From Escherichia coli (GTDB taxonomy: Bacteria; Pseudomonadota; Gammaproteobacteria; Enterobacterales; Enterobacteriaceae), in NCBI RefSeq assembly GCF_044324785.1, contig NZ_CP172127.1: a DNA stretch of 64,000 nt. The stretch is one strand, 5' to 3'. This document shows positions 3,133 to 50,238 of the stretch, in pieces. The notes beneath the pieces were generated by a model. It saw only the letters and a program-made list of their open reading frames with translations, ran no database searches and was not told where the DNA came from. A program made the position numbers and the translations under genes. Every line of letters starts with the position of its first letter. Within the stretch, counting starts at the first letter, position 1.

Positions 3133-4032
3133 ATGCTCTCTCGACATATCAATTATTTTCTTGCCGTGGCTGAACATGGCAGCTTCACCCGTGCAGCCAG
3201 TGCGTTGCACGTCTCCCAGCCAGCACTTTCCCAGCAGATTCGCCAGTTAGAGGAGAGTTTAGGCGTGCCGCTGTTTGACCGTAGCGGGCGAACGATTCGT
3301 CTCACTGATGCAGGAGAAGTCTGGCGACAGTACGCCAGCCGGGCTTTACAGGAACTGGGGGCGGGTAAACGGGCGATTCATGATGTTGCCGATCTGACGC
3401 GAGGATCGCTGCGTATCGCCGTCACTCCCACCTTTACAAGCTACTTTATCGGCCCTTTAATGGCGGATTTCTATGCGCGCTACCCCGGCATCACGCTCCA
3501 GCTACAGGAAATGTCGCAGGAGAAAATCGAAGATCTGCTTTGCCGCGACGAGCTGGACGTTGGGATTGCCTTCGCGCCTGTGCATTCGCCGGAGCTGGAG
3601 GCAATTCCTTTACTGACAGAAAGTTTAGCTTTAGTCGTGGCGCAATATCATCCGCTGGCTGCCTGTGAACAGGTGGCGTTGAGTCGCTTGCATGATGAAA
3701 AACTGGTCCTGCTCAGCGCGGAATTTGCCACCAGAGAGCAAATTGACCACTACTGTGAGAAAGCGGGGCTACATCCACAGGTGGTCATTGAGGCGAACTC
3801 AATTAGCGCGGTTCTGGAGCTGATTCGCCGCACTTCCCTTTCCACATTGTTGCCAGCAGCGATTGCCACACAACATGACGGGCTTAAAGCTATATCCCTT
3901 GCCCCACCGTTACTGGAGAGAACGGCGGTTTTGTTGCGGCGGAAAAATAGCTGGCAGACAGCCGCCGCGAAGGCATTTTTACACATGGCGTTGGAGGAAT
4001 GTGCGGATGTTGGCGAGAATGAATCACGGTAG
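3133..4032 (+). CDS. cynR: LysR-family transcriptional regulator of cyn operon
   Basis: ORF 3109..4032 trimmed to ATG 3133 ([22 protein letters not shown]..., 299 aa); HTH at N-terminus; divergent from cynTSX. Confidence 0.93.
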
Positions 4033-4071: not shown

Positions 4072-5355
4072 TTACCGTTTGTAATCGATGGCTTCTGGCT
4101 GCTCCAGATATACGGTGGTTTGTGCTGGTTGGGTGCTGGCAATCACCTTACCGCCACGTACCGAATAGCGCACCGGAACCTGACGGCGCAGCGCATCAAA
4201 CCCATTTTCAGCCGGCAGGATAATCAGGTTGGCGCTGTTTCCGGCGGCAATGCCGTAATCCTGCAAATTCAACGTCCTGGCGCTATGGTGGGTGATTAAA
4301 TTCAGGCCGTCGTTAATCTGCCCGTAGCCCATCAACTGACAAACATGCAGCCCCATATGCAGCACTTGCAGCATATTCGCCGTTCCCAGTGGATACCACG
4401 GATCGAAGACATCATCGTGACCAAAGCAGACGTTAATGCCGGACTCCAGCATCTCTTTAACGCGCGTGATGCCGCGACGTTTTGGATAGGTATCGAAACG
4501 TCCTTGCAGATGAATATTGACCAGCGGGTTGGCGACAAAGTTAATACCGGACATTTTCAGCAAACGGAACAAGCGTGAGGTATACGCCCCGTTATAGGAG
4601 TGCATTGCCGTAGTGTGGCTAGCGGTGACTCGCGCGCCCATGCCTTCACGGTGCGCCAGGGCAGCAACGGTTTCGACAAAGCGCGACTGCTCGTCATCGA
4701 TCTCATCACAGTGAACGTCGATGAGACGGTCGTATTTTTGCGCCAGGGCGAAGGTTTTATGCAGCGACTCCACGCCGTATTCGCGGGTAAATTCAAAATG
4801 CGGAATCGCCCCCACTACGTCTGCCCCTAAGCGTAACGCCTCTTCCAGCAACGCTTCACCGTTGGGATACGACAAAATCCCTTCCTGCGGGAAGGCGACG
4901 ATTTGCAGATCAATCCACGGCGCGACTTCCTGCTTCACTTCCAGCATTGCTTTCAGCGCGGTCAGCGTTGCATCCGAAACATCGACATGGGTACGTACAT
5001 GCTGAATGCCGTTGGCAATCTGCCATTTCAGCGTTTGCCATGCGCGTTGTTTCACATCGTCATGGGTTAATAACGCTTTGCGCTCGGCCCAGCGTTCAAT
5101 GCCTTCGAACAGCGTGCCGGACTGATTCCAGTTCGGTTGTCCGGCGGTTTGCGTGGTGTCCAGGTGAATATGCGGCTCCACAAACGGCGGTAAAACTAAA
5201 CCTTGTTCGGCATCCAGGCTGTTTTCTGTTACGGGCATCACACCAGATTGCGTATCAATGGCGCTGATTTTTCCGTCGTGAAGATGAATCTGCCACAGCC
5301 CCTCTTTGCCGGGTAACCGGGCGTTAATAATTGTTTGTAAAGCGTTATTCGACAC
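4072..5355 (-). CDS. codA: cytosine deaminase
   Basis: ORF 4072..5370 matches CodA; start set to GTG at 5355 ([16 protein letters not shown]...), the known non-ATG start as I recall it. Confidence 0.94.
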
Positions 5356-30805: not shown

Positions 30806-31303
30806 ATGAACGGACTCACGGCAACGGGTGTCACCGTCGGTATTTGTGCAGGGCTTTGGCAGTTAGTGTCTTCACATGTTGGGCTCTCTCAGGGATGGGA
30901 ATTATTAGGAACCATTGGCTTCGTCGCCTTTTGCAGTTTTTATGCCGCAGGCGGCGGTAAATCGGGGTTTATCAGAAGTCTGGCGGTTAATTATTCCGGG
31001 ATGGTGTGGGCGTTTTTCGCCGCGCTGGCTGCCGGCTGGCTGGCCTCGGTGAGTGGATTGTCCACGTTCTGGGCGAGCGTGATTATGACTGTACCCTTCT
31101 CGGCGGTGGTGGTCTGGCAAGGACGTTTCGGTTTATTGTCTTTTATTCCCGGAGGCTTTCTCGGCATGACGCTATTTTTTGCCAGCGGGATGAACTGGAC
31201 AGTGACATTACTGGGTTTTCTGGCGGGTAACTGCGTGGGGATAATTTCAGAATATGGCGGACAAAAATTAAGCGAAGCGACGACTAAACGCGACGGGTAT
31301 TAA
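30806..31303 (+). CDS. yahC: small inner-membrane protein
   Basis: 165-aa hydrophobic ORF at the expected position. Confidence 0.8.
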   Translation: MNGLTATGVTVGICAGLWQLVSSHVGLSQGWELLGTIGFVAFCSFYAAGGGKSGFIRSLAVNYSGMVWAFFAALAAGWLASVSGLSTFWASVIMTVPFSAVVVWQGRFGLLSFIPGGFLGMTLFFASGMNWTVTLLGFLAGNCVGIISEYGGQKLSEATTKRDGY

Positions 31304-31394: not shown

Positions 31395-32327
31395 ATGAAC
31401 TCAATTTTTACCGAAGAGAATCTGTTGGCATTTACTACCGCTGCGCGTTTTGGCAGTTTCAGTAAAGCCGCAGAAGAGTTGGGTTTAACCACTTCCGCCA
31501 TTAGCTACACCATCAAGCGAATGGAAACAGGGCTGGATGTGGTGCTGTTCACTCGCAGTACCCGAAGCATTGAGTTAACGGAGTCCGGGCGTTATTTTTT
31601 CCGCAAAGCTACCGACCTGCTGAATGATTTTCACGCCATCAAACGCAGCATCGATACTATTTCGCAGGGTATAGAAGCACGGGTGCGCATTTGTATTAAC
31701 CAACTGCTTTATACGCCCAAACACACCGCACGCTTATTACAGGTACTGAAAAAGCAGTTTCCAACCTGCCAGATTACCGTGACGACCGAAGTGTATAACG
31801 GCGTCTGGGATGCGATTATTAATAATCAGGCGAATATTGCTATCGGCGCGCCCGACACACTGCTGGACGGCGGCGGCATTGATTACACGGAGATTGGCGC
31901 AATTCGCTGGGCTTTTGCTATCGCCCCGGATCACCCATTAGCCTTTGTGCCGGAGCCGATCGCCGAAAGCCAACTGCGTCTCTATCCTAATATCATGGTG
32001 GAGGACACCGCGCATACGATTAATAAAAAAGTGGGCTGGTTGCTGCATGGGCAGGAGTCGATTCTGGTGCCAGATTTCAACACCAAATGTCAGTGCCAGA
32101 TTTTAGGTGAAGGAATTGGTTTTTTGCCGGATTACATGGTCCGTGAGGCGATGGCGCAATCCCTGCTGGTTACCCGACAAATCCATAATCCGCGCCAGGA
32201 TTCACGCATGTTACTCGCAACTCAGCATTCTGCTACGGGTCAGGTGACGCAGTGGATTAAAAAACAATTTTCGCCAAATGGCATATTAACGGGGATCTAT
32301 CAGGATTTACTGCATCGGGAGAATTAA
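31395..32327 (+). CDS. yahB: LysR-family transcriptional regulator
   Basis: 310-aa ORF with N-terminal HTH (FSKAAEELGLTTSAISYTIKRME). Confidence 0.85.
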   Translation: MNSIFTEENLLAFTTAARFGSFSKAAEELGLTTSAISYTIKRMETGLDVVLFTRSTRSIELTESGRYFFRKATDLLNDFHAIKRSIDTISQGIEARVRICINQLLYTPKHTARLLQVLKKQFPTCQITVTTEVYNGVWDAIINNQANIAIGAPDTLLDGGGIDYTEIGAIRWAFAIAPDHPLAFVPEPIAESQLRLYPNIMVEDTAHTINKKVGWLLHGQESILVPDFNTKCQCQILGEGIGFLPDYMVREAMAQSLLVTRQIHNPRQDSRMLLATQHSATGQVTQWIKKQFSPNGILTGIYQDLLHREN

Positions 32328-32368
32328 TCGCTGCCAACCTCCCGATGCGCTGTGAATAGCGGTTTACA

Positions 32369-33457
32369 TCAACCACCAGCTTTCATTACCCATTCAGAAA
32401 CAAATTTATTACCTGGTACTGGCGGAGAGTACAAATAGCCCTGCAAAAAGTGAACGCCTTTACCGATCATTAAATCCGCCTGCTCCTGGGTTTCTACCCC
32501 TTCCGCCACGATACTCAGACCAGGCTTACGCGCCAGTTCGACAATATTGTCCACAATATGACCGGATATTTCGTCCACGCTCGCCATTTGCACAAACGAC
32601 TTATCGATCTTAATAAAATCGACCGGAAACGCCTGCAAATAACGATAGGTCGCATAACCCGTACCAAAATCATCCAGCGCAAAGGTAATGTTGTGCTGAT
32701 GAAGGCTGTCAAATATCGCTCTGGCTTCTGGCGTTACCGGAATAGGGTTACGTTCCGTTAGCTCGAGAACCAGTTTGATTTTATCGTTTCCTAATTTCTT
32801 GACCAGGTTCAGGCATTCTTTTTCAAATCCCGCGGCCAAAAAACAACCCGCCGAGACGTTGATGCCAATATGGAAATTATCCGGCAGCAAATGTTTTACC
32901 GGCATCAGAATATCCGCAGTCTGTTTCATCAACTGGCGAGTCATTATGACGATAAGACCAGATGACTCCGCCAGAGGAATAAACTGATCCGGTGGGATAA
33001 TTCCCGTTTGTGGATGTTCCCAGCGGACAAGCACCTCACAGCCCGTCAGTACCCCAGTCTGCGCGCAGAAAACCGGTTGGATCCACGGTTTAAATTCATG
33101 GTTTTCCAACGCCAGACTGATGGCTTCAGGCGTGACGATATGGTGATAGTGATTATCATTAATATATTTGTGACTATTATTACCCGTGGCGGATATGATC
33201 TCCGGATTGTACTGAAAGAAAATATCCCGCCAGAAAGTAATATCGCTCTGAATCCCCAGTTTCTCAAAGAGCTGTTTCTTTTGATGTGAAATGGTCTTTG
33301 CACTGCGATTTCTGTACTGTGATATTTCTGTTACAGACATTCCCTGCATCAGCAGCTTGAGTAGCAGTCGTTCTTTCTCGGATACGCTACCAGGCAATGA
33401 CAAATGAACCGTTGTACCGAACTCTTGCAGAAAAACACGAAAATCACATGAATTCAT
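32369..33457 (-). CDS. pdeL: c-di-GMP phosphodiesterase with LuxR-type HTH and EAL domain
   Basis: ORF 32369..33463 trimmed to ATG 33457 (MNSCDFRVFLQEF...); EAL motif region ELTE present; matches YahA/PdeL. Confidence 0.9.
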   Translation of the reverse strand: MNSCDFRVFLQEFGTTVHLSLPGSVSEKERLLLKLLMQGMSVTEISQYRNRSAKTISHQKKQLFEKLGIQSDITFWRDIFFQYNPEIISATGNNSHKYINDNHYHHIVTPEAISLALENHEFKPWIQPVFCAQTGVLTGCEVLVRWEHPQTGIIPPDQFIPLAESSGLIVIMTRQLMKQTADILMPVKHLLPDNFHIGINVSAGCFLAAGFEKECLNLVKKLGNDKIKLVLELTERNPIPVTPEARAIFDSLHQHNITFALDDFGTGYATYRYLQAFPVDFIKIDKSFVQMASVDEISGHIVDNIVELARKPGLSIVAEGVETQEQADLMIGKGVHFLQGYLYSPPVPGNKFVSEWVMKAGG

Positions 33458-34333
33458 GAACACACCTTTATCTTTTATCGCTGTTCAGTATGAGTGATTA
33501 CCTGTGGATTCCTGAGCACACATAAGGGGTAACCATAAACATCAGCGATGCCATACGCATAACATCCCACATCACTATCAAAAAGATTATCTTTACCTCT
33601 GATGCTCGCTCAAAAACAGTTACGCTAAATACCTTAAAAAGGTAATCACAAGTCAAACTCAGGAGATAATCACGCAAGAATGCAATATTAAAATTCAGAT
33701 ACTCATTTTTGGTAATAAAGAAGTAGTTGGACTATTTCAATATTTATAATTTCCCACTACGTATTGACGCCCATTCATGAGTAAAGGCGCATTATATGAA
33801 TTTAACAATCCAGATCAACTGAAAATACCTCAACCTCATAAACACATAGCGTCAACATTCAATGACATAATGAGTAAAGATGTTGGTTATGCATACACGT
33901 CATTACTCTATGCCTATCCCTTAACAACCTGCTTTTTAAGGCTGAATCCATTCAGCAATAGATAGCCAACATTATAACAATGACAATAAAAACAATATTT
34001 AAAACAATCAATAAAATATCAGACACAGACAATTAAACCTTAAACAACAAACAGTTACATTGATTTTAGTTGATTTGCGCTACGCGTTTCCCATGAATAA
34101 AGCGTCATTTCAAATTAGCACCAATATTTACATTAAATAAGACTAAGCTTATTGAACATTCACAACAGTCCAAGCGTAGGTTTTGGGCTTCAATAGTTCT
34201 TTTCTTTTTTATTATCTGTTGCCTGGCAATCATCAATCGATACTAAGGGCTTAACTGTACACAGATATAACGTATCAAGAGGTAAGAGAAACCGCGCCAT
34301 ATGCAGACATGGCGCGGTTTTATGCAATAACAA

Positions 34334-36367
34334 TCACGCGTCCGGGAACATCACGCTATGGCCCGGCGCTTCACGATGGAGATGGATAAAGTTAAGGTGC
34401 CGCTCGTACTGGTCGAGAATATCGGTGATCACCTGCTCTTTGCTGTAGTCCATCAGGTCGTTGCCCTGGCTGCCTTCTAACAGGAAAGTTTCCAGCCGGT
34501 AGTAGGTCGATTTACCGCTACGTGCGCGGTAGGTAAAGCCCGGCACCGAATATTGCTGCGGCCAAATCTGATAGACAAAGTTTTGCTCTTCGCCCATATG
34601 CACCAACAAATCCAGATGCCCCAACTGTTGTCCCTCTTCCGGCGGCAGGCTTTTTAGCTCCACGTACGCGCCGCGCAACCGCAGCTCCTGCGCCACTTCT
34701 TCCATTGCCGGGTAACAGACCGTCTCCATCATCTGTTTAGTGTAACGCGTGCCCGGATAATTCATCAGGCGCGAGAGACGTTTTTTCCAGCTCAGGCGAT
34801 CCTGAAGCCCCAGCGGTCGCGGCGCGGTATCACGGTTGGCACTTTCACGGCGGTAATCTTCTACCTTCAGAGATTTATACAACCCCGCCATCACGAAGAA
34901 AATCACAAAGCTGAACGGCAGCCCCATGATTACCGTGGTGTTTTGCAGCGCGGATATCCCGTTGGTCATCAGCATGCCAAGCGTCAGCAGACCAATCGCC
35001 ACCGACCAGAAGACGCGCAGCCAGCCGGGGGCGTCGCTGTTGATATCTTTAAGCTGCGAGGTGAAATTCCCCAGCACCAGCGCGCCGGAGTCCGCCGAGG
35101 TCACATAAAACAGCAGGCCAGTAATGGTGGCGACGGAGGCGCTAAAGGTAAACGCCGGATACTGCGCCAGCAGGCTGTAGAAGCCGCGCTCCGGATGGAC
35201 CATCGCTTCCTCGGCAAATGCCGCGCCGCCGTGGATGATTTCATACAGCGCGCTATTGCCGAACACCGAGAGCCATAACAGCGTGAAGGTAAACGGAATA
35301 ATCAACGTGCCCAGCACGAACTGGCGAATGGTACGCCCACGCGAGATACGCGCCAGGAACAGGCCGACAAACGGCGACCATGCCACCCACCATGCCCAGA
35401 AGAAGAGCGTCCAGTTATTCATCCACTCAACCGGACGGTCGAAGGCAAAACTGTTGAGCGTCATTCCCATAAAGCGATTCACATAGTCGCCAACGTTCAG
35501 CACCAGCGCATTAAGCAGGAACGAGGTGTCGCCCATAAACAGCACGAACAGGATCAGCCCCAGCGCCAGCGCAACGTTGAGTTCCGATAACACACGAATG
35601 CCCTTATCGACACCGGAGGTGACAGAGATCGTTGCGATGATCACCGACAAGGCGATCAGTGCCGCTTTTGCCGCCATCGAATCAGGAATATCAAACAGTA
35701 CGCTCAAGCCATAGTTAAGCTGCACCACACCGATACCGAGCGTAGTGGCAATACCGAAGATGGTGCCGATCACTGCTGCAATATCCACTGAGTGACCTAT
35801 CGGCCCGTTAATCCGTTTACCGAAGATCGGGTACAGCGCTGAGCGGATGGTGAGCGGCAAATTATAACGATAGCTAAAGTATCCGAGCGCCATGCCCATC
35901 AGCGCATACATCGACCAGCCGGTTAAGCCGTAGTGAAACAGCGTCCAGACCATCGCCTGACGCGCGGCCTCAATCGTCTGACCCGCGCCTTCCGGCGGCT
36001 GCATATACTGCGTTACCGGTTCGGCTACGGAGAAGAACATCAGGTCGATACCGATCCCGGCAGCAAACAGCATCGCCGCCCAACTCAGCAGACTGAACTC
36101 CGGTTTGGATTGTTCTGGCCCGAGCTTCACCGAACCAAAACGCGAACAAGCGATACAGACCACAAAGACAATATAGAGCGTTGCCGCCAGCAGATAGTAC
36201 CAACCGAAGGTTTTAGAGACCCAGTCCAGCGTGCGTCCAATCCACAGGGCCGAGAAGTCGCGAAACAGGATCGTTGTCAGGGAAAACAACAAAATCAGTC
36301 CGGCGGAAGTGTAAAACACCACCGGATTGATTTTGTCCTTTTCCCTGCTGTGTGAAAGGTCTGTCAT
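34334..36367 (-). CDS. betT: choline transporter (BCCT family)
   Basis: 677-aa polytopic ORF matching BetT. Confidence 0.95.
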   Translation of the reverse strand: MTDLSHSREKDKINPVVFYTSAGLILLFSLTTILFRDFSALWIGRTLDWVSKTFGWYYLLAATLYIVFVVCIACSRFGSVKLGPEQSKPEFSLLSWAAMLFAAGIGIDLMFFSVAEPVTQYMQPPEGAGQTIEAARQAMVWTLFHYGLTGWSMYALMGMALGYFSYRYNLPLTIRSALYPIFGKRINGPIGHSVDIAAVIGTIFGIATTLGIGVVQLNYGLSVLFDIPDSMAAKAALIALSVIIATISVTSGVDKGIRVLSELNVALALGLILFVLFMGDTSFLLNALVLNVGDYVNRFMGMTLNSFAFDRPVEWMNNWTLFFWAWWVAWSPFVGLFLARISRGRTIRQFVLGTLIIPFTFTLLWLSVFGNSALYEIIHGGAAFAEEAMVHPERGFYSLLAQYPAFTFSASVATITGLLFYVTSADSGALVLGNFTSQLKDINSDAPGWLRVFWSVAIGLLTLGMLMTNGISALQNTTVIMGLPFSFVIFFVMAGLYKSLKVEDYRRESANRDTAPRPLGLQDRLSWKKRLSRLMNYPGTRYTKQMMETVCYPAMEEVAQELRLRGAYVELKSLPPEEGQQLGHLDLLVHMGEEQNFVYQIWPQQYSVPGFTYRARSGKSTYYRLETFLLEGSQGNDLMDYSKEQVITDILDQYERHLNFIHLHREAPGHSVMFPDA

Positions 36368-36495: not shown

Positions 36496-37083
36496 ATGCC
36501 CAAATTGGGGATGCAGTCGATCCGGCGCAGACAACTGATCGACGCCACGCTGGAAGCAATAAATGAAGTGGGCATGCACGATGCAACGATCGCGCAGATC
36601 GCCCGCCGTGCAGGCGTTTCTACGGGGATCATCAGCCACTATTTCAGGGACAAAAATGGTCTGCTGGAAGCAACCATGCGCGATATCACCAGTCAGCTGC
36701 GTGACGCGGTTTTGAATCGATTACATGCACTTCCGCAGGGCAGTGCAGAGCAGCGATTACAGGCGATTGTTGACGGGAATTTCGATGAATCGCAGGTCAG
36801 TAATGCTGCGATGAAAGCCTGGTTGGCGTTTTGGGCCAGCAGTATGCATCAGCCGATGCTTTACCGTTTGCAGCAGGTGAGCAGCCGCCGCTTGTTGTCG
36901 AATCTGGTGAGCGAATTTCACCGCGAGTTACCGCGCCAACAGGCACAGGAAGCGGGCTACGGCCTTGCCGCGCTGATTGACGGATTATGGCTGCGCGCGG
37001 CACTGAGCGGCAAACCGCTGGATAAACCTCTCGCACACTCGCTGACCCGTCACTTTATTACTCAGCATTTACCCACCGATTAA
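36496..37083 (+). CDS. betI: TetR-family choline-responsive repressor
   Basis: ORF 36478..37083 trimmed to ATG 36496 ([24 protein letters not shown]..., 195 aa). Confidence 0.95.
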
Positions 37084-38582: not shown

Positions 38583-40271
38583 TTGCAATTTGACTACATC
38601 ATTATTGGTGCCGGCTCAGCTGGCAACGTTCTCGCTACCCGTCTGACTGAAGATCCGAACACAACCGTGCTGCTGCTTGAAGCAGGCGGCCCGGACTATC
38701 GCTTTGACTTCCGCACCCAGATGCCCGCCGCGCTGGCATTCCCGCTGCAGGGTAAACGCTACAACTGGGCCTATGAAACGGAGCCCGAACCGTTTATGAA
38801 TAACCGCCGCATGGAGTGCGGACGCGGTAAAGGTCTGGGCGGATCGTCACTGATCAACGGCATGTGCTACATCCGTGGCAATGCGCTGGATCTCGATAAC
38901 TGGGCGCAAGAACCCGGTCTGGAGAACTGGAGCTACCTCGACTGCCTGCCCTACTACCGCAAGGCCGAGACTCGCGATGTGGGCGAGAACGACTACCACG
39001 GCGGTGATGGCCCGGTGAGCGTCACCACCTCCAAACCCGGCGTCAATCCGCTGTTTGAAGCGATGATTGAAGCGGGCGTGCAGGCGGGCTACCCGCGCAC
39101 GGAGGATCTCAACGGTTATCAGCAGGAAGGTTTTGGCCCGATGGATCGCACCGTCACGCCGCATGGCCGTCGCGCCAGCACCGCGCGTGGCTATCTCGAT
39201 CAGGCCAAATCGCGCCCTAACCTGACCATTCGTACTCACGCCATGACCGATCACATCATTTTTGACGGCAAACGCGCGGTGGGCGTCGAGTGGCTGGAAG
39301 GCGACAGCACCATTCCGACCCGCGCGGCGGCGAATAAAGAAGTGCTGTTATGTGCAGGCGCGATTGCTTCACCGCAGATCCTGCAACGCTCCGGCGTCGG
39401 CAACGCTGAACTGCTGGCGGAGTTTGATATTCCGCTGGTGCATGAATTACCTGGCGTCGGCGAAAATCTTCAGGATCACCTGGAGATGTATCTGCAATAT
39501 GAGTGCAAAGAACCGGTTTCCCTCTACCCTGCCCTGCAGTGGTGGAATCAGCCGAAAATCGGTGCGGAGTGGCTGTTTGGCGGCACCGGCGTTGGTGCCA
39601 GCAACCACTTTGAAGCTGGCGGATTTATTCGCAGCCGTGAGGAATTTACGTGGCCGAATATTCAGTACCATTTCCTGCCAGTGGCGATTAACTATAACGG
39701 CTCGAACGCAGTGAAAGAGCACGGCTTCCAGTGCCACGTCGGATCGATGCGCTCGCCAAGCCGTGGGCATGTGCGGATTAAATCCCGCGACCCGCACCAG
39801 CATCCGGGAATTCTGTTTAACTACATGTCGCACGAGCAGGACTGGCAGGAGTTCCGCGACGCAATTCGCATCACCCGCGAGATCATGCATCAACCGGCGC
39901 TGGATCAGTATCGTGGCCGCGAAATCAGCCCCGGTGTCGAATGCCAGACGGATGAGCAGCTCGATGAGTTCGTGCGTAACCACGCCGAAACCGCGTTTCA
40001 TCCGTGCGGTACCTGCAAAATGGGTTATGACGAGATGGCTGTGGTTGACGGCGAAGGCCGCGTACACGGGCTGGAAGGCCTGCGCGTGGTGGATGCGTCA
40101 ATTATGCCGCAAATTATCACCGGCAATTTGAACGCCACGACGATTATGATTGGCGAGAAAATAGCGGATATGATTCGTGGGAAGGAAGCGTTGCCGAGGA
40201 GCACGGCAAGATATTTTGTGGCAAATGGGATGCCAGTAAGAGCGAAAAAAATGAGTCGTGATTTGAACTAA
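38583..40271 (+). CDS. betA: choline dehydrogenase (GMC oxidoreductase)
   Basis: TTG start at 38583 ([14 protein letters not shown]...) 4 nt after AGGAGG; FAD-binding GxGxxG; 562 codons to stop; overlaps betB end. Confidence 0.92.
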
Positions 40272-40289
40272 CTCAGGAACCTATCAGAT

Positions 40290-40350
40290 TGAGAGTTACC
40301 GTTCTACTATGAGGACCGAATCCTTATATAAAACACTGAGGTAACTCTCA
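40290..40350. terminator. long hairpin (11-bp arms tgagagttacc / ggtaactctca, 39-nt spacer) downstream of betA
   Basis: Inverted repeat read in sequence, followed 30 bp later by ggTTTTTTg; possible betA terminator. Confidence 0.3.
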
Positions 40351-40464
40351 TGCTTCATATCCAGTATTCATGATGCTGGTTTTTTGCTGATATTTAACCC
40401 GAACACTCCTGATACAGACTATTAATTCATTTATCTGCGACAGATTTCATTTTCTGGATATATT

Positions 40465-41133
40465 ATGAGTGAACAAATCAAACAGGATATCGATCTGATT
40501 GAGATTTTATTTTATCTGAAGAAAAAGATTCGTGTTATCCTTTTTATTATAGCCATCTGTATGGCAATGGTGCTTTTATTTCTGTATATCAATAAAGATA
40601 ATATAAAAGTGAGTTACAGCCTAAAAATAAACCAGACAACACCAGGCATACTTGTTAACTGTGATAGCAATAATAACTTTGCCTGTCAGACCACAATGAC
40701 TGAAGATGTTATTCAGCGAATTACTACATTTTTTCACACCAGCCCAGATGTCAAGAACAGAGAAATAAAGCTGGAATGGTCAGGAGATAAGAGAGATTTA
40801 CCAACTGCTGAAGCGGAAATATCTCGCGTGCAGGCGTCTATTATCAAATGGTATGCGTCAGAATATCATAATGGCAGGCAAGTTCTCGATGAGATACAAA
40901 CACCTTCAGCAATTAACAGTGAGCTTTATACAAAAATGATATACCTGACCAGGAACTGGTCATTGTATCCGAACGGTGATGGCTGTGTAACTATAAGCTC
41001 ACCAGAAATAAAAAATAAATACCCTGCTGCCATTTGCCTGGCTCTGGGATTTTTTATAAGCATTGTAATTTCTGTAATGTTTTGCCTTGTCAAAAAAATG
41101 GTAGATGAATACCAACAAAACTCTGGGCAGTAA
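40465..41133 (+). CDS. ykgH: uncharacterized inner-membrane protein, AT-rich gene
   Basis: 222-aa ORF with N- and C-terminal hydrophobic segments at the position expected for YkgH. Confidence 0.8.
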   Translation: MSEQIKQDIDLIEILFYLKKKIRVILFIIAICMAMVLLFLYINKDNIKVSYSLKINQTTPGILVNCDSNNNFACQTTMTEDVIQRITTFFHTSPDVKNREIKLEWSGDKRDLPTAEAEISRVQASIIKWYASEYHNGRQVLDEIQTPSAINSELYTKMIYLTRNWSLYPNGDGCVTISSPEIKNKYPAAICLALGFFISIVISVMFCLVKKMVDEYQQNSGQ

Positions 41134-43501: not shown

Positions 43502-44221
43502 TCAGCGGCTCATCAACACTTCAGCAATATGCATCACTTTGACTTTCTGCCCTTCCCGTTGTAATCGCCCACTGATGTTCAGCAGGCAACTCACGTCAGC
43601 ACCAATTAAATACTCAGGGCGGACTTCCATCAGGTGCGCAACCTTTTCTTTCACCATCTCGCCGGATATTTCGGCCATTTTGACCGAGAACGTGCCGCCA
43701 AATCCGCAGCAGGTATCCTGTTCAGCAAAGGTCAACAGCTCCAGTCCACGCACATTTTTCAGCAGCGTAAGTGGCTCGTCCTTCACCCCCAGCTTACGGG
43801 CCAGGCTACAAGATGGGTGATACACCGCTCTCCCTTGCAAACTGGCACCTACATCGACTACCCCTAATGTATTAACAATAAAAGAGGTGAGATCCTGCAT
43901 ACGCGCGGCAACCTTTTCGGCACGTGATGCCCATTCAGGTTCATCCGCCAGATACGTCGGGTAACTTTTTACGGCATAGGTGCAAGAGCCAGCCGGTGAA
44001 ATAATGGGATCGTCGTTATCCTCCAGTGCGGCGATCAGATTTTTCATCCCTGGAATCGCTTCTTTGATATAACCACTATTGATCGCAGGCTGACCGCAGC
44101 ATCCCTGTTTCTCCGGGAAATTTACGCGACAGCCGAGTTTTTCCAGTAGCAGCACGGAGTCTCGTGCCATTCTTGATTTCAGGGCGTCACCAATACAGGT
44201 GACAAAGAAATTGACATTCAC
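43502..44221 (-). CDS. ykgE: LutA-like cysteine-rich (CCG-domain) oxidoreductase subunit
   Basis: 239-aa ORF with CCG-type cysteine clusters; first gene of ykgEFG. Confidence 0.9.
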   Translation of the reverse strand: MNVNFFVTCIGDALKSRMARDSVLLLEKLGCRVNFPEKQGCCGQPAINSGYIKEAIPGMKNLIAALEDNDDPIISPAGSCTYAVKSYPTYLADEPEWASRAEKVAARMQDLTSFIVNTLGVVDVGASLQGRAVYHPSCSLARKLGVKDEPLTLLKNVRGLELLTFAEQDTCCGFGGTFSVKMAEISGEMVKEKVAHLMEVRPEYLIGADVSCLLNISGRLQREGQKVKVMHIAEVLMSR

Positions 44222-44747
44222 AACTAATACTCCATTACTTCATGCCCATTTATGCCCGATGGTTCCCCCCTTCCGGGGGATCAATCATCAATAAATATGG
44301 CGTTCTTTTTTAATTGGCTAGCAACATACCACCCCTCATTTGTATGACAAATGATAATCTTTCATCCAAACTTCAAATGCAATAACTAATTTTATTTCTT
44401 TCGGCATCGCTCACATTTTATAGGGAAATCGACGATCATTTTTGGCATAAGAAATCCATTTAAAAAGGCTACATCCCTTATACCTATTCAGTGCTACTTA
44501 TTCAGGGGTTATTGAGATATACACTGATGGTGTACAAACAAAATCACCAACAATAATTACGTATCAAGTAATAATCGGCATTTTATTTAATTGAAGCAAT
44601 TTAGTTTGCATTTTTATTTAAAAACTGAGCTAGAGTCCATCAGAAAAAATATATAAAGCCCAAACCACCGTTGGAAATAGAAATAGTTGAAAGGCTCACA
44701 ACTCCCGGAATGCGGATTATCTTTGCCCTGATTTCTGGCGGTTTTAT

Positions 44748-45602
44748 TCAGGGTGCAAGCTGTCTGACCCTTTCCCGATATTCTCCCGGAGTACAACCAA
44801 ACTCGCGGACAAACGCCTTGTGAAAAGAGGATTCACTGGCATAGCCTACTGACTCAGCGATCACCGCAACAGGGAGCGTTTCCCGGGAAAACATCTGGGC
44901 CGCTATTTGTAGACGCAACTTTGTTAATACAGACAGCGGCGTGGTTCCGGAAACATCACGGAAAAGCAGGGCAAAACTTGCCCGGGACATGTGGGCGATG
45001 CTGGCCAGCGATTCGACGGTCCAGGCGTGTCCTGGCATTTCCAGCATTTGCTGTATTACCGCACCAAGACGTGGATGCAGAAGCAAACTGAGAATGTTTT
45101 TCTCAGTATTAACCTGTGCAATCCACTCACGCACCGCGAGGATAAAGAATGTAGCGCAGATCTGGCTACACAGTGCATCCACTCCCGGCATTGCCGATCT
45201 GGATTCCTGTTGTAAAAACGGGATCGCCTCCCTCAGCCAGTTATATTCCACGCTGTGGTTAACCGGTGCTAAAAACAGCGTTTCCGGCAAAGACGTTAAA
45301 AAATAACGCGCCGAATGTTGCAGCCGAAGAGTGCCGCAGACAATACAGGTCGATTCATTATCGACATGACTCAGGCGATGAGCTGAATTTTGTGGTAGCA
45401 GGACCACATTTCCCGGGCGTAATGTAAAAATCTCCCCCGTCGGCATTTCCAGCTTCGCCGCTCCTTGCGTTAACGCATGCCAACGAATAACCGATAATTC
45501 CCCGGCACCATGTGGAAGCTGCCAGTCACTTCCTAACACGCAATTCTTATCGATCGTTCCTTGTGGAGCGTTAAGCATCAACAAACGGCTAAGGGCATCC
45601 AT
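44748..45602 (-). CDS. rclR: AraC-family reactive-chlorine-responsive activator
   Basis: 284-aa ORF with C-terminal AraC HTH, divergent from rclA; matches RclR/YkgD. Confidence 0.9.
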   Translation of the reverse strand: MDALSRLLMLNAPQGTIDKNCVLGSDWQLPHGAGELSVIRWHALTQGAAKLEMPTGEIFTLRPGNVVLLPQNSAHRLSHVDNESTCIVCGTLRLQHSARYFLTSLPETLFLAPVNHSVEYNWLREAIPFLQQESRSAMPGVDALCSQICATFFILAVREWIAQVNTEKNILSLLLHPRLGAVIQQMLEMPGHAWTVESLASIAHMSRASFALLFRDVSGTTPLSVLTKLRLQIAAQMFSRETLPVAVIAESVGYASESSFHKAFVREFGCTPGEYRERVRQLAP

Positions 45603-45827
45603 ATCAGACTCCTGAGTGGTTTTTGATTACAAACACCAACAATCTTACACAATAATTAATCTAATACCATCAAATGGTTAATCATGGTTATTGTTTTTTG
45701 ACTCTGATTAAGAAAAAGAAAATACCAGACGATAAGACAAAATATCAAGCGTTGTGAAGAAATGTTATTTGCTCTTTTGCGTCTATAGTCATGATGTCAA
45801 ATGAACGCGTTTCGACAGGAAATCATC

Positions 45828-47153
45828 ATGAATAAATATCAGGCAGTGATTATTGGTTTTGGCAAGGCTGGAAAAACATTAGCCGTCACGCTGGCAAAAG
45901 CAGGTTGGCGAGTGGCTCTCATCGAACAATCAAATGCAATGTATGGCGGGACCTGTATTAATATCGGCTGCATCCCAACCAAAACATTGGTTCATGACGC
46001 ACAGCAGCACACAGATTTTGTCCGTGCCATACAGCGTAAAAATGAAGTGGTTAATTTTTTACGTAATAAGAATTTTCATAATCTTGCGGATATGCCCAAT
46101 ATCGACGTGATCGACGGCCAGGCGGAGTTTATCAATAATCATAGCCTGCGTGTTCATCGGCCTGGGGGAAATCTGGAGATTCATGGCGAGAAAATTTTTA
46201 TTAATACCGGTGCACAAGCCGTGGTTCCGCCAATTCCTGGAATTACCACCACGCCTGGTGTATATGACAGCACCGGATTACTTAATCTAAAAGAATTGCC
46301 TGGGCATTTAGGTATTTTGGGCGGCGGATATATTGGCGTTGAGTTCGCCTCTATGTTCGCTAATTTTGGCAGCAAAGTAACCATTTTAGAAGCAGCTTCG
46401 CTGTTTTTGCCTCGGGAAGATCGGGATATTGCTGATAATATCGCGACGATTTTACGCGATCAGGGCGTCGATATTATCCTCAATGCCCATGTGGAGCGAA
46501 TCAGTCACCATGAAAATCAAGTGCAAGTGCATAGCGAGCACGCCCAACTGGCGGTGGATGCACTGTTAATAGCTTCCGGTCGTCAACCGGCTACCGCTTC
46601 GTTACATCCAGAAAATGCCGGTATCGCAGTAAACGAGCGCGGGGCAATTGTCGTTGACAAGCGATTACATACCACCGCAGACAATATTTGGGCGATGGGA
46701 GATGTTACCGGCGGGCTGCAATTTACTTACATATCACTGGATGATTACCGCATTGTACGTGATGAGTTACTGGGTGAAGGCAAACGTAGTACTGATGATC
46801 GGAAAAATGTGCCTTATTCCGTATTTATGACACCGCCCCTGTCCAGGGTTGGTATGACAGAAGAACAAGCCAGAGAGAGTGGTGCTGATATTCAGGTGGT
46901 GACATTGCCTGTAGCTGCAATTCCCCGCGCCAGAGTGATGAACGATACCCGTGGGGTATTAAAAGCGATTGTTGATAATAAAACCCAACGTATATTAGGG
47001 GCATCACTGCTGTGTGTTGACTCCCACGAGATGATTAATATAGTGAAAATGGTGATGGATGCCGGACTGCCTTATAGCATATTACGCGATCAGATATTTA
47101 CTCATCCGTCGATGAGCGAATCACTCAATGATCTATTTTCATTAGTCAAATAA
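45828..47153 (+). CDS. rclA: pyridine nucleotide-disulfide oxidoreductase
   Basis: ORF 45801..47153 trimmed to ATG 45828 (MNKYQAVIIGFGKAGKTLA..., 441 aa); redox-active CINIGC motif. Confidence 0.9.
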   Translation: MNKYQAVIIGFGKAGKTLAVTLAKAGWRVALIEQSNAMYGGTCINIGCIPTKTLVHDAQQHTDFVRAIQRKNEVVNFLRNKNFHNLADMPNIDVIDGQAEFINNHSLRVHRPGGNLEIHGEKIFINTGAQAVVPPIPGITTTPGVYDSTGLLNLKELPGHLGILGGGYIGVEFASMFANFGSKVTILEAASLFLPREDRDIADNIATILRDQGVDIILNAHVERISHHENQVQVHSEHAQLAVDALLIASGRQPATASLHPENAGIAVNERGAIVVDKRLHTTADNIWAMGDVTGGLQFTYISLDDYRIVRDELLGEGKRSTDDRKNVPYSVFMTPPLSRVGMTEEQARESGADIQVVTLPVAAIPRARVMNDTRGVLKAIVDNKTQRILGASLLCVDSHEMINIVKMVMDAGLPYSILRDQIFTHPSMSESLNDLFSLVK

Positions 47154-47163
47154 ACTCAAAATC

Positions 47164-47191
47164 AGACGCCAGAACAAATATTCTGGCGTCT
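47164..47191 (+). other. 11-bp-stem hairpin between rclA and rclB
   Basis: agacgccagaa-caaata-ttctggcgtct read in sequence; no following T-run, so may be attenuator/processing structure rather than terminator. Confidence 0.4.
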
Positions 47192-47261
47192 CAGAGAAAA
47201 GAATCTTATTAATTCTCTGTTACTCTATAAATTCTTAATCACTTCATTGATGGTATTTTAT

Positions 47262-47498
47262 ATGTTTAAAAAATCCGTTTTATTTGCAACACTATTATCT
47301 GGCGTTATGGCATTTTCCACCAATGCAGATGATAAAATAATTCTGAAACATATCAGCGTCTCGTCAGTATCAGCATCACCGACAGTTCTGGAGGATACCA
47401 TTGCTGATATAGCCAGAAAATATAATGCTTCATCCTGGAAAGTCACATCGATGCGAATTGATAATAATTCAACCGCAACAGCAGTATTGTATAAATAA
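47262..47498 (+). CDS. rclB: DUF1471 periplasmic protein
   Basis: ATG 47262 (MFKKSVLFATLLSG..., 78 aa) with signal peptide. Confidence 0.8.
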   Translation: MFKKSVLFATLLSGVMAFSTNADDKIILKHISVSSVSASPTVLEDTIADIARKYNASSWKVTSMRIDNNSTATAVLYK

Positions 47499-47509
47499 GG
47501 ATGTTCACA

Positions 47510-48103
47510 ATGGAAAAATACCTGCACCTGTTAAGTCGGGGAGATAAAATTGGCCTGACATTGATTCGTCTGAGTATTGCGATTGTTTTTATGTGGATTG
47601 GGTTATTAAAGTTTGTCCCTTACGAGGCAGACAGCATTACACCATTCGTCGCAAACAGTCCACTAATGTCGTTCTTTTATGAACACCCGGAAGACTATAA
47701 ACAGTATCTGACTCACGAAGGCGAATACAAACCAGAAGCAAGGGCATGGCAATCGGCCAATAATACCTATGGTTTTTCCAACGGTCTTGGCGTCGTGGAG
47801 GTGATTATTGCTCTGCTGGTTTTGGCTAATCCTGTCAATCGCTGGTTAGGTTTATTGGGAGGGCTGATGGCATTTACCACACCGTTGGTAACACTCTCAT
47901 TTTTAATCACCACCCCGGAGGCATGGGTACCCGCATTGGGTGACGCTCATCATGGTTTCCCTTATTTATCCGGTGCTGGTCGCCTGGTATTGAAAGATAC
48001 TCTGATGCTGGCAGGTGCTGTCATGATAATGGCAGATTCGGCGCGGGACATTCTTAAACAACGCAGTAATGAATCCAGTTCAACGTTAAAAACTGAATAT
48101 TGA
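47510..48103 (+). CDS. rclC: DUF417 inner-membrane protein
   Basis: ATG 47510 preceded by AAGGA (MEKYLHLLSRGDKIG..., 197 aa). Confidence 0.85.
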   Translation: MEKYLHLLSRGDKIGLTLIRLSIAIVFMWIGLLKFVPYEADSITPFVANSPLMSFFYEHPEDYKQYLTHEGEYKPEARAWQSANNTYGFSNGLGVVEVIIALLVLANPVNRWLGLLGGLMAFTTPLVTLSFLITTPEAWVPALGDAHHGFPYLSGAGRLVLKDTLMLAGAVMIMADSARDILKQRSNESSSTLKTEY

Positions 48104-48136
48104 TAATCCGAACACTGTCTGTTGTTCACTTTTTCA

Positions 48137-48174
48137 GGCGTCAGGCCCCCTTTCTGATGATGAAGCCTGACGCC
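48137..48174. terminator. bidirectional hairpin ggcgtcaggc ... gcctgacgcc between rclC and aldo-keto reductase
   Basis: Perfect 10-bp GC-rich stem with 18-nt loop between convergent gene ends. Confidence 0.45.
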
Positions 48175-48262
48175 ATATTACTGGAGATATGACAGAGTGA
48201 AGATCAATATCACTCCCCTGTTAAAAGATTCTTGTCGTCTCAGGTAAAATACATGATTAATA

Positions 48263-49147
48263 TCAATCATGTATTTTTACAGCAAGACAACCACGAACAA
48301 ATTCAGGATTAAAATGTTTTACCGACTCCCCAACATAACCCAAATCAAGCGAACTAATTTGTGCCATTTCTTTCTCTGTCAGTGAGAAATCCCAGATAGC
48401 AAAATTTTCTTCGATACGCTGTTGATGTGTCGATTTCGGAATAACGACCACTCCCCGTTGAATATTCCAACGCAGAATGACTTGAGAAATCGATTTTTGA
48501 TGGGCATCTGCAATACTCTGAAGCAGATTATTTTCAAAGGGTTTATGTCGTCCACCACCTAACGGAGCCCATGCTTCAGGCTGCACGTTATAATACTTCA
48601 TGGTTGCCAGCGCCTCTGGTTGGGCAAAATAGGGATGCAACTCGACCTGGTTGACCATCGGTTTAACTCTTACCGTTTCACAAAAGTTCGCCAGAACATG
48701 AGGATAGAAATTGGAAACCCCAATTGCTTTTAATTTGCCCTCTTCATAGGCATCTTCGAGTGCACGCCACGCACTGAAATAATCGCGCATAGCCTGGTGC
48801 AATAAATAGAGGTCGAAGTATTCTAGTCCCGATTTTTTTAATGACGCTTCAATACCTGCTTTTGCCGTATCCTGATTCAACATATCCTGCACCCACAATT
48901 TAGACGTTATAAATAACTCATCTCGGGTACATAAACCTTCAGATATAGCTTCACGAACGGCTTCACCGACGGCATCTTCATTACCGTATACCGCTGCAGT
49001 GTCGATGAGTCGATAACCCGTGCGGATAGCGTTCAACACTGACTGTTTGCACACGTTTTTATCGGTAACCTGAAAAACACCAAATCCCATCATCGGCATT
49101 TTCAGATTGTTACTTAATACGGAAAATTCCACTGTCAGTCCCTCCAT
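48263..49147 (-). CDS. aldo-keto reductase
   Basis: 294-aa ORF with AKR motifs ([20 protein letters not shown]); true start may be an internal Met (MPMMGFG...). Confidence 0.85.
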   Translation of the reverse strand: MEGLTVEFSVLSNNLKMPMMGFGVFQVTDKNVCKQSVLNAIRTGYRLIDTAAVYGNEDAVGEAVREAISEGLCTRDELFITSKLWVQDMLNQDTAKAGIEASLKKSGLEYFDLYLLHQAMRDYFSAWRALEDAYEEGKLKAIGVSNFYPHVLANFCETVRVKPMVNQVELHPYFAQPEALATMKYYNVQPEAWAPLGGGRHKPFENNLLQSIADAHQKSISQVILRWNIQRGVVVIPKSTHQQRIEENFAIWDFSLTEKEMAQISSLDLGYVGESVKHFNPEFVRGCLAVKIHD

Positions 49148-49380
49148 TAGGCATGAACAATGAGTCTACGTTAAAACGTAACCTCAAATTAGTATGTGGA
49201 TTTTGATATCACTTATGCAAAAAATTCATTAATAATGTAGGGTTGAAACCTCTCTATTTTCGGGGACAACGAAGCAGACGCTATCAGTGCTTTTGCCTTG
49301 CGCCTTGCTGTTTTTGATACACTTAGGGCCCAGGACATAACGAAAATGTGCGATATGACAAAGAATTAACGGAGAATGTG

Positions 49381-50238
49381 ATGATCAGGCAGAAGATTCT
49401 ACAGCAGCTCCTGGAGTGGATTGAGTGCAATCTTGAGCACCCTATTTCAATCGAAGATATCGCACAGAAATCTGGCTACAGCAGACGCAACATCCAGCTT
49501 CTGTTCCGAAATTTCATGCATGTGCCTTTGGGAGAATACATTCGCAAACGAAGGCTTTGTCGTGCCGCCATTCTTGTCCGGCTCACCGCGAAATCTATGC
49601 TTGATATTGCACTTTCTTTGCATTTTGATTCACAGCAGTCATTCAGCCGCGAATTTAAAAAGTTATTCGGCTGCTCTCCCCGTGAATACCGCCACCGTGA
49701 TTATTGGGATCTCGCAAATATCTTCCCTTCTTTTTTAATACGTCAACAACAAAAGACGGAGTGTAGATTAGTCAACTTTCCTGAGACACCTATTTTTGGC
49801 AACTCATTTAAATATGACATTGAAGTGTCGAATAAATCACCGGATGAAGAAGTCAAACTGCGACGTCATCATTTATCCAGATGTATGAATAATTTTAAGA
49901 CGGATATCTATTTCGTCTCCACGTTTGAACCGTCAACAAAATCGGTCGATTTGCTCACGGTTGAAACTTTTGCCGGTACGGTATGCAAACAAACCGATTC
50001 AGAGATGCCGAAAGAGTGGACAATTAACCGAGGACTGTATGCCTCTTTCCGCTATGAAGGTGAGTGGGAGCACTACCCTGAATGGGCGCGAAACCTCTAT
50101 CTGATGGAATTACCTGCCAGGGGGTTAGCCAGAGTGAACGGCAGTGATATTGAGCGGTTTTATTACAATGAAAACTTCGTCGAAATTGATAGCAATAACA
50201 TTGTTTGCGAAATTTTTATCCCCGTTCGTCCGGTTTAG
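49381..50238 (+). CDS. ykgA: AraC-family regulator with GyrI-like effector domain (Rob-like)
   Basis: ATG 49381 preceded by GGAG; N-terminal AraC HTH; 285 aa; intact here. Confidence 0.8.
   Translation: MIRQKILQQLLEWIECNLEHPISIEDIAQKSGYSRRNIQLLFRNFMHVPLGEYIRKRRLCRAAILVRLTAKSMLDIALSLHFDSQQSFSREFKKLFGCSPREYRHRDYWDLANIFPSFLIRQQQKTECRLVNFPETPIFGNSFKYDIEVSNKSPDEEVKLRRHHLSRCMNNFKTDIYFVSTFEPSTKSVDLLTVETFAGTVCKQTDSEMPKEWTINRGLYASFRYEGEWEHYPEWARNLYLMELPARGLARVNGSDIERFYYNENFVEIDSNNIVCEIFIPVRPV

Follow-up and report, generated by a model that had tools for sequence, protein, structure and literature searches.

The 876 bp that separate betT from pdeL (formerly yahA) in the 64,000-nt stretch of E. coli chromosome analyzed here (hereafter the window) very likely constitute the K-12-type allele of the E. 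coli betT–pdeL spacer, that is, the regulatory region and the leader of pdeL. PdeL is the c-di-GMP 'digitiser' for motility, biofilm and phage sensitivity, and the switch by which it acts is built in the betT–pdeL spacer, as established for K-12. The spacer is already known as H-NS-type regulatory DNA of pdeL, and what we see in the window is essentially what the K-12 literature describes. To this our analysis makes three modest additions: the window strain has a second haplotype, the regulatory segment as a whole is accessory, and a Cra/PdeL-box/P1 module is common to the promoter of the adhesin gene ehaA. We infer that the length of the interval reflects the leader of 328 nt, an architecture in which two sites are looped together, and the unconstrained AT-rich filler of a dimorphic locus, with no further gene or RNA.

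The K-12 pdeL region is the nearest known counterpart of the spacer. The synteny betT-yahV-pdeL is the same, the Cra box, the distal PdeL box (CIB), the -35 and -10 elements of promoter P1 and the ribosome-binding site (RBS) are identical, the spacer measures 874 bp in K-12 vs 876 bp in the window, and the leaders are 97% identical. In contrast, the upstream half is about 10% diverged, and differences affect 5 of the 14 positions of the PdeL box dependent on Cra (CDB) and 7 of the 24 residues of YahV.

The locus and its composition

Table 1. Features of the betT–pdeL spacer, with block-wise identity of the window to Escherichia sp. E1V33 and to the divergent lineage L005 for the four conserved islands
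Feature	Position in window	Strand	Description	Identity to E1V33 / L005
betT stop codon	34334-34336	minus
betT–pdeL spacer	33458..34333		876 bp; E. coli chromosome; both flanking genes on minus strand
betT intrinsic terminator	34280..34320	minus	14-bp GC-rich hairpin (34320..34289), then U-tract; UUUCUCUU
AT-rich segment	33472..34291		820 bp; one of two alternative inserts
CIB, distal Cra-independent PdeL box	34136..34153		palindrome AATAAG-N6-CTTATT; centre about -360 from TSS	90% / 83% (core)
yahV homologue	33952..34026	minus	GTG start, 24 codons; product MSDILLIVLNIVFIVIVIMLAIYC, hydrophobic single-helix peptide
Cra box	33942..33956		GCTGAATGGATTCAG; centre about -164 from TSS	100% / 100%
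CDB, Cra-dependent PdeL box position	33928..33941		adjoins Cra box; K-12 CDB set by oligos 4695/5028
62-aa ORF	33777..33965	plus	antisense to P1 and Cra box
pdeL promoter P1	33791..33818	minus	-35 TTGATC (33818-33813), 16-bp spacer, -10 TATAAT (33796-33791)	91% / 89%
pdeL leader (5' UTR)	33458..33785	minus	328 nt; TSS by homology to K-12 Cappable-seq
Last ~50 nt of leader with RBS				92% / 92%
pdeL Shine-Dalgarno	33463..33468	minus	AAGGTG, 5 nt before ATG 33457; read off sequence
pdeL start	33457	minus	ATG; RefSeq start, 362 aa

The features of the spacer are collected in Table 1. A RefSeq genome 99.8% identical to the window carries annotations for betT and pdeL, and nothing in between. The longest pdeL ORF (364 aa) would begin at a GTG at 33463, 6 nt upstream of the annotated ATG; the ATG at 33457 is favoured because this GTG falls inside the AAGGTG Shine-Dalgarno sequence.

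A reading made from the window sequence alone (hereafter the sequence-only reading) had singled out the interval as an unusually long AT-rich gap upstream of pdeL, with coordinates that prove exact: its GC content is 34.8% vs 50.1% across the window, and equal AT-richness is reached in only 0.7% of 876-bp windows. It had also recognized in this DNA, and in its A/T tracts, the hallmarks of regulatory regions bound by H-NS. The AT-richness supports this view; the tracts are not significantly enriched over what the composition alone yields (7 tracts of at least 5 nt observed vs 4.7 +/- 2.1 in shuffles). Only two 10-mers within 2 mismatches of the high-affinity H-NS motif TCGATAAATT occur in the spacer. 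The anticipated H-NS binding and complex control of pdeL match published K-12 work, but complexity alone does not explain the length: the transcribed leader accounts for 328 nt, and the bulk of what remains behaves as filler in its evolution.

Other markedly AT-rich stretches of the window lie at about 56380-60310, 39720-40990, 13710-16880 and 43580-50170, and the GC minimum of the window (32.6%, near 59481) is below the GC content of the betT–pdeL spacer.

At the betT end of the spacer, the RNA fold of the intrinsic terminator (-22.7 kcal/mol, z = -4.9) was equalled in stability by 0 of 200 shuffles. Its hairpin is common to the genomes that carry ehaA at this locus (ehaA-type genomes, see below), and homology with them stops at 34292, within the 3' arm of the hairpin.

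Promoter P1 and the pdeL leader

By homology to K-12, pdeL is preceded by a 328-nt leader that starts from P1, an assignment that rests on K-12 Cappable-seq, on the consensus match and on the design of K-12 constructs. P1 matches the sigma-70 consensus at 10 of 12 positions, is identical in K-12 and lies inside the fragment used for RNA polymerase (RNAP) recruitment in the K-12 study (oligos 4695-4283). Transcription start sites (TSSs) of K-12 were taken from the Cappable-seq list in U00096.2 coordinates (PMC4782308 supplement), in which the consecutive entries 330673, 331267, 331353, 331503 and 331853 are all on the pdeL strand. The strongest, 331267 (score 8.9), is located 6 nt past the P1 -10 element and, by a gap-free alignment in which the K-12 ATG is at 331595, corresponds to 33785 in the window, one base off the P1 prediction; the minor sites 331353 and 331503 correspond to 33699 and 33549. 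A second promoter-like site, at 33613..33586, was rejected, as no K-12 TSS corresponds to it.

In ChIP-chip data, RNAP is present at the yahA regulatory region without entering the coding region (PMC1636352), which fits a promoter located 328 nt upstream of the gene. The same observation would also agree with post-initiation control in the leader, through an H-NS/Rho roadblock, premature termination or a structure hiding the ribosome-binding region, although we consider such control rather unlikely. The leader is 64% AT, its last ~50 nt and the RBS are 92% identical across clades vs 72-85% for the rest of the leader, and a pairing between UGAACAGC and GUGUGUUCA around the Shine-Dalgarno sequence and AUG is predicted in all five sequences compared. 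Nevertheless, the leader fold is not significant (z = -1.47), and compensatory changes affect only 1 of 84 pairs in the five-sequence consensus. Neither an Rfam family nor a terminator-like site was found in the leader, and its RNA strand contains more G than C, unlike typical Rho-utilisation sites. Furthermore, a shared recombination history can explain why leaders are nearly identical within E. coli, since the low-divergence block concerned includes the 5' end of pdeL.

Insertions of IS1 are found in the spacer of at least six complete genomes (Ec-U14-1, AZ 187, QL57EC, NZ_OX030701.1, A23 and JX21CE33). The three insertion points that were mapped all differ, falling at window positions of about 33604-33612 (L049), 33701-33712 (L052) and 33896-33903 (L051). 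Two of them interrupt the leader and the third separates the CDB from P1; in every case pdeL is uncoupled either from P1 or from the boxes upstream of it.

The PdeL and Cra boxes and the proposed switch

Earlier work on the K-12 pdeL (yahA) regulatory region is reportedly due to Reinders et al. in 2016 and to Yilmaz and Schnetz. In K-12, pdeL is silenced by H-NS and activated by Cra and PdeL via two PdeL boxes; hns derepression, competition between H-NS and PdeL at the CIB, co-activation by Cra and PdeL, and the requirement of Cra for binding of PdeL to the CDB have all been described (bioRxiv 10.1101/2021.10.01.462762). Repression of pdeL by H-NS is independently stated by the Schnetz laboratory. 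By ChIP-chip, the yahA regulatory region is among the few sites bound jointly by FIS, H-NS and IHF (PMC1636352).

We placed the K-12 sites on the window by means of the EMSA and mutagenesis oligos that Reinders et al. list in their supplement (bioRxiv 10.1101/2021.10.01.462762). The CIB palindrome has 0 mismatches in the window and lies within the K-12 CIB EMSA fragment (oligos 4991/4997); the identity of its core to the sister clades E1V33 and L005 (Table 1) compares with 51-64% for the flanking background. The Cra box is identical at 15 of 15 positions to the K-12 'CB' (EMSA oligo 4695), which was altered by mutation to give the CB- reporter strain, and is 100% identical in the five lineages compared as well as in the ehaA-type and E. 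whittamii-type spacers. The TGA stop codon of yahV sits within it. In the window as in E1V33 and L005, 196-197 bp separate the CIB from the Cra box. The CDB is CCTTAAAAAGCAGG in the window vs TCTTAATGAGTGGG in K-12, with 9 of 14 positions identical, 5 of 14 different and the CTTAA core retained, and its block is poorly conserved (83% identity to K-12, 52% to E1V33 and 66% to L005). The Cra-dependent step of PdeL binding at this diverged box may be different or weaker in the window strain.

Since the Cra box, the CIB, P1 and the RBS are identical to those of K-12, the K-12 mechanism probably operates in the window strain as well, with the reservation of a difference of about 10% in the CDB and in the ~500 bp around it. 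First, the AT-rich DNA would be coated by H-NS, together with Fis and IHF, leaving P1 silenced. Second, binding of Cra to its box would enable PdeL to bind the adjoining CDB and, at low c-di-GMP, a PdeL tetramer would also engage the CIB, probably looping the ~200 bp in between. This tetramer would then displace H-NS and recruit RNAP. Finally, high c-di-GMP would break the PdeL tetramer, and the outcome would be a bistable positive-feedback switch. The Cra box, given its position (Table 1), is unusually distant from the promoter for direct recruitment of RNAP.

Loci of the bgl and proU type are the classical examples of H-NS-silenced genes that can be activated by insertion sequences. pdeL resembles them by the AT-rich DNA, a putative silencer, on both sides of its promoter, by its specific anti-silencing activator and by the IS1 insertions of natural isolates. 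Unlike in these loci, the anti-silencer of pdeL is the gene's own product, is gated by c-di-GMP and depends on Cra.

Divergence and conservation

The divergence of the window from K-12 is about 10% in the upstream half (33785-34290) vs about 3% in the leader. At the population level, the leader is at least 95% identical in essentially all carriers (~3,770 genomes). For the upstream half the distribution has two modes, 1,615 genomes being at 80-90% identity. It exists within E. coli as two haplotypes that differ by about 10%, and the window strain carries the second haplotype, including its diverged CDB and YahV. Constraint on the leader, as could be read from the identity of at least 95%, was withdrawn: the low-divergence block extends over the 5' end of pdeL, patches of 10-12% divergence occur elsewhere, as at the 3' end of betI, and the identity of the leader to the sister clades (82-83%) is no better than that of pdeL third-codon positions (82-88%).

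Patches diverging by 7-12% from K-12 are found at 36762-37061 (3' end of betI), 31062-31161 (yahC) and 35462-35661 (betT), in surroundings that diverge by 1-4%. As far as sequence comparison can tell, such short patches look like a recombination mosaic.

Across clades, only the four islands of Table 1 are conserved, and the rest, yahV included, drifts; background blocks outside the islands, among them yahV and the CDB block, are 51-80% identical to E1V33 and L005. On this basis, what is functional in the 876 bp comes down to four short islands, including the last ~50 nt of the leader.

YahV, other reading frames and small RNAs

The sequence-only reading recognized no credible ORF in the interval. 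This view cannot be maintained, as an intact homologue of K-12 yahV lies at 34026..33952 on the minus strand. Its product, MSDILLIVLNIVFIVIVIMLAIYC, is identical to K-12 YahV, MCDILLNVLNIVFIGIAIILVIIC, at 17 of 24 residues and differs at 7 of 24. The homologue resembles its K-12 counterpart (b4730) in position, frame, length, GTG start, stop and hydrophobicity, and is preceded by an SD-like AAGG. K-12 YahV, a protein of 24 aa, was detected on immunoblots by chromosomal SPA tagging (VanOrsdel et al., 2018, PMC6001520). It is annotated in K-12, whereas the window variant is unannotated in the closest RefSeq genome, in which PGAP does not call it, and shows no sign of selective constraint.

The region could have the encoding of a functional small membrane protein, YahV, as its main function and not as a by-product, a proposal that we view with doubt. 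In its favor, the 24-codon frame is preserved in each of the three E. coli haplotypes that we compared, along with the start, the SD-like AAGG and the stop, the tagged K-12 protein is visible on immunoblots, and all variants are uniformly hydrophobic. However, T-rich DNA yields hydrophobic codons by default, and yahV of the window differs from that of K-12 by 8 nonsynonymous vs 0 synonymous changes (P = 0.14 under neutrality), so that purifying selection on YahV is not detectable. Both Escherichia sp. E1V33 and L005 have a broken frame, and the identity of their yahV DNA (64% and 58%, respectively) is at background level. In addition, the K-12 Cappable-seq list contains no TSS between 330673, inside betT, and yahV.

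The K-12 sense TSS 330673 corresponds to about 34381 on the minus strand of the window, in the 3' end of betT and 47 nt before its stop codon. The list gives no other TSS upstream of yahV. A yahV mRNA would have to start at this site or come from betT, and in both cases to read through the betT terminator.

The 62-aa ORF of the plus strand had been dismissed for its lack of a ribosome-binding site, rightly so, as the bases before its ATG are cccattc and include no Shine-Dalgarno sequence. We also rejected it as a gene on the grounds that the K-12 list holds no TSS on the strand opposite to pdeL and that stops and a frameshift interrupt it in E1V33/L005; the conservation of its N-terminal part is attributed to the overlap with P1. 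Two ORFs of the leader were likewise rejected: that of 59 aa is interrupted in E1V33 as well as in L005, that of 31 aa in L005 only.

As for the unannotated small RNA that had been offered as another explanation of the interval, its presence is highly improbable. The minor sense TSSs of the leader, at 33699 and 33549 by transfer from K-12, could in principle yield short transcripts. Against this, Rfam returned 0 matches at E<=10 on either strand of 33000-34800, a scan of 33300-34500 gave no intrinsic terminator-like site, the K-12 list includes neither a TSS on the opposite strand nor one upstream of P1 within the spacer, no significant structure was detected, and the RefSeq annotation of K-12 places only yahV in the spacer.

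Two alternative inserts between betT and pdeL

The AT-rich segment is one of two sequences that alternate at this site. When the window was compared by blastn (word 7) with an ehaA+ genome, the only matches were 32300-33471 and 34292-34600. Homology of the two forms ends at 34292 on one side and, on the other, at 33471, 14 bp before the ATG of pdeL, these 14 nt being the only pdeL-side part of the spacer common to ehaA-type genomes. The AT-rich segment occurs in about 3,775-3,814 of 5,426 complete E. coli genomes, in one copy each, and a sensitive search revealed no paralogue elsewhere in E. coli. The ehaA-type sequence occupies the same site in 1,402 of the 5,426 genomes (~26%). It begins with an AT-rich spacer of 572 bp, continues with ehaA, an autotransporter adhesin gene of 3,984 bp, and ends with 141 bp, after which pdeL follows. 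This alternative insert, a 4.64-kb segment, corresponds to the O-island 15 already described (PMC8565820). As a whole, the regulatory segment of the window is accessory, and about a quarter of E. coli carries ehaA instead, behind a homologous Cra/PdeL-box/P1 module.

The autotransporter form is also found in E. albertii and in E. whittamii-type genomes, and the AT-rich form in Escherichia sp. E1V33 and in L005. Both forms are thus spread over several Escherichia lineages and must therefore be old. Orthologues of pdeL itself are found in Escherichia only, the next best matches being EAL proteins about 48% identical. We rejected the view of the AT-rich segment as a decayed remnant of ehaA, since blastn (word 7), nhmmer and Smith-Waterman alignments with shuffles detected nothing significant beyond the Cra-to-P1 module.

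The length of the spacer could result mostly from its evolutionary history, that is, from an ancient alternative insert in which, apart from the four islands, H-NS-coated filler drifts neutrally. We give this proposal, which complements the main explanation, a little less than an even chance. It is consistent with the lack of detectable similarity to the ehaA-type locus beyond the Cra-to-P1 module, with a background identity to the sister clades that lies under that of pdeL third-codon positions, with the decay of every ORF of the segment in the sister clades, with the two haplotypes of the upstream half within E. coli, and with the tolerance of IS1 insertions at three or more sites. Conversely, the four islands are clearly conserved, the similar distance between the CIB and the Cra box in the window, E1V33 and L005 suggests that spacing, if not sequence, matters, and AT-richness is itself functional in silencing by H-NS (bioRxiv 10.1101/2021.10.01.462762).

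A module shared with the ehaA promoter

The O-island 15/ehaA region of EHEC O157:H7, of other ehaA+ E. coli and of E. whittamii-type genomes is, like the segment of the window, AT-rich (31.8% GC) and located between the betT terminator and the RBS of pdeL. Common to both are a Cra box, a PdeL-type palindrome, a P1-like promoter and nearly equal spacing. In the ehaA-type spacer of E. coli strain 118 (L048 5471..6042), the Cra box is identical, the PdeL-type palindrome AATAAGACGATTCTTATA is found 23 nt downstream of the box (0.5-1% of shuffles would contain one by chance), and the P1-like promoter TTGATT-N16-TATAATGCGC matches the consensus at 10 of 12 positions. The Cra-to-promoter spacing is nearly equal in the two forms (136 vs 138 bp), and the 172-nt block from the Cra box to the TSS is collinear between them, with an alignment score of 51, whereas shuffles score 28.4 +/- 4.4 and 42 at best (z = 5.2). 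In the E. whittamii-type spacer (L053 4941..5865), the module is located at the same distance from ehaA.

The two loci differ in other respects. The palindrome of the window lies about 200 bp upstream of the Cra box rather than downstream of it, and in the ehaA form the module precedes the 4-kb ehaA, yahV and the 328-nt pdeL leader are lacking, and pdeL follows 141 nt after ehaA. The leader and the part from the CIB to yahV have no significant similarity to the ehaA locus; an apparent homology stretching into the first ~110 nt of the leader failed the shuffle test (z = 1.8 and 0.5). In the 141-nt ehaA-pdeL spacer (L048 1346..1486), we found a strong 12-bp hairpin with a weak U-tail, and recognized no sigma-70-like promoter site.

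Taken at the sequence level, these features suggest that in ehaA-type strains the Cra/PdeL/H-NS module would control the adhesin, and that pdeL would be without its own autoregulatory promoter. We tentatively extend this to a broader proposal, plausible though somewhat more doubtful than not, in which the ~170-bp module from the Cra box to P1 would be an ancient portable cassette that, in E. whittamii-type genomes and in ~26% of E. coli (O157:H7 among them), drives ehaA rather than pdeL directly. Surface adhesion by EhaA would then be under the control of Cra, PdeL, c-di-GMP and H-NS, and pdeL would be expressed by read-through from ehaA only. If so, much of the species would have the K-12-type bistable PdeL switch in another wiring, or would lack it. 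We found no description of the control of ehaA by Cra or PdeL in open-access text, and the module offers a testable hypothesis tying the adhesin to the Cra/PdeL circuit.

The betT side of the locus varies as well. E. whittamii-type genomes (L053 about 5260-5335) are devoid of the bet operon and retain a betT 3' remnant with the terminator hairpin beside ykgG, and in Escherichia sp. E1V33 (L004 about 2093-2131) ykgG is followed by a similar hairpin and then by the AT-rich segment. The loss or gain of bet has therefore been independent of the dimorphism between ehaA and the AT-rich segment.
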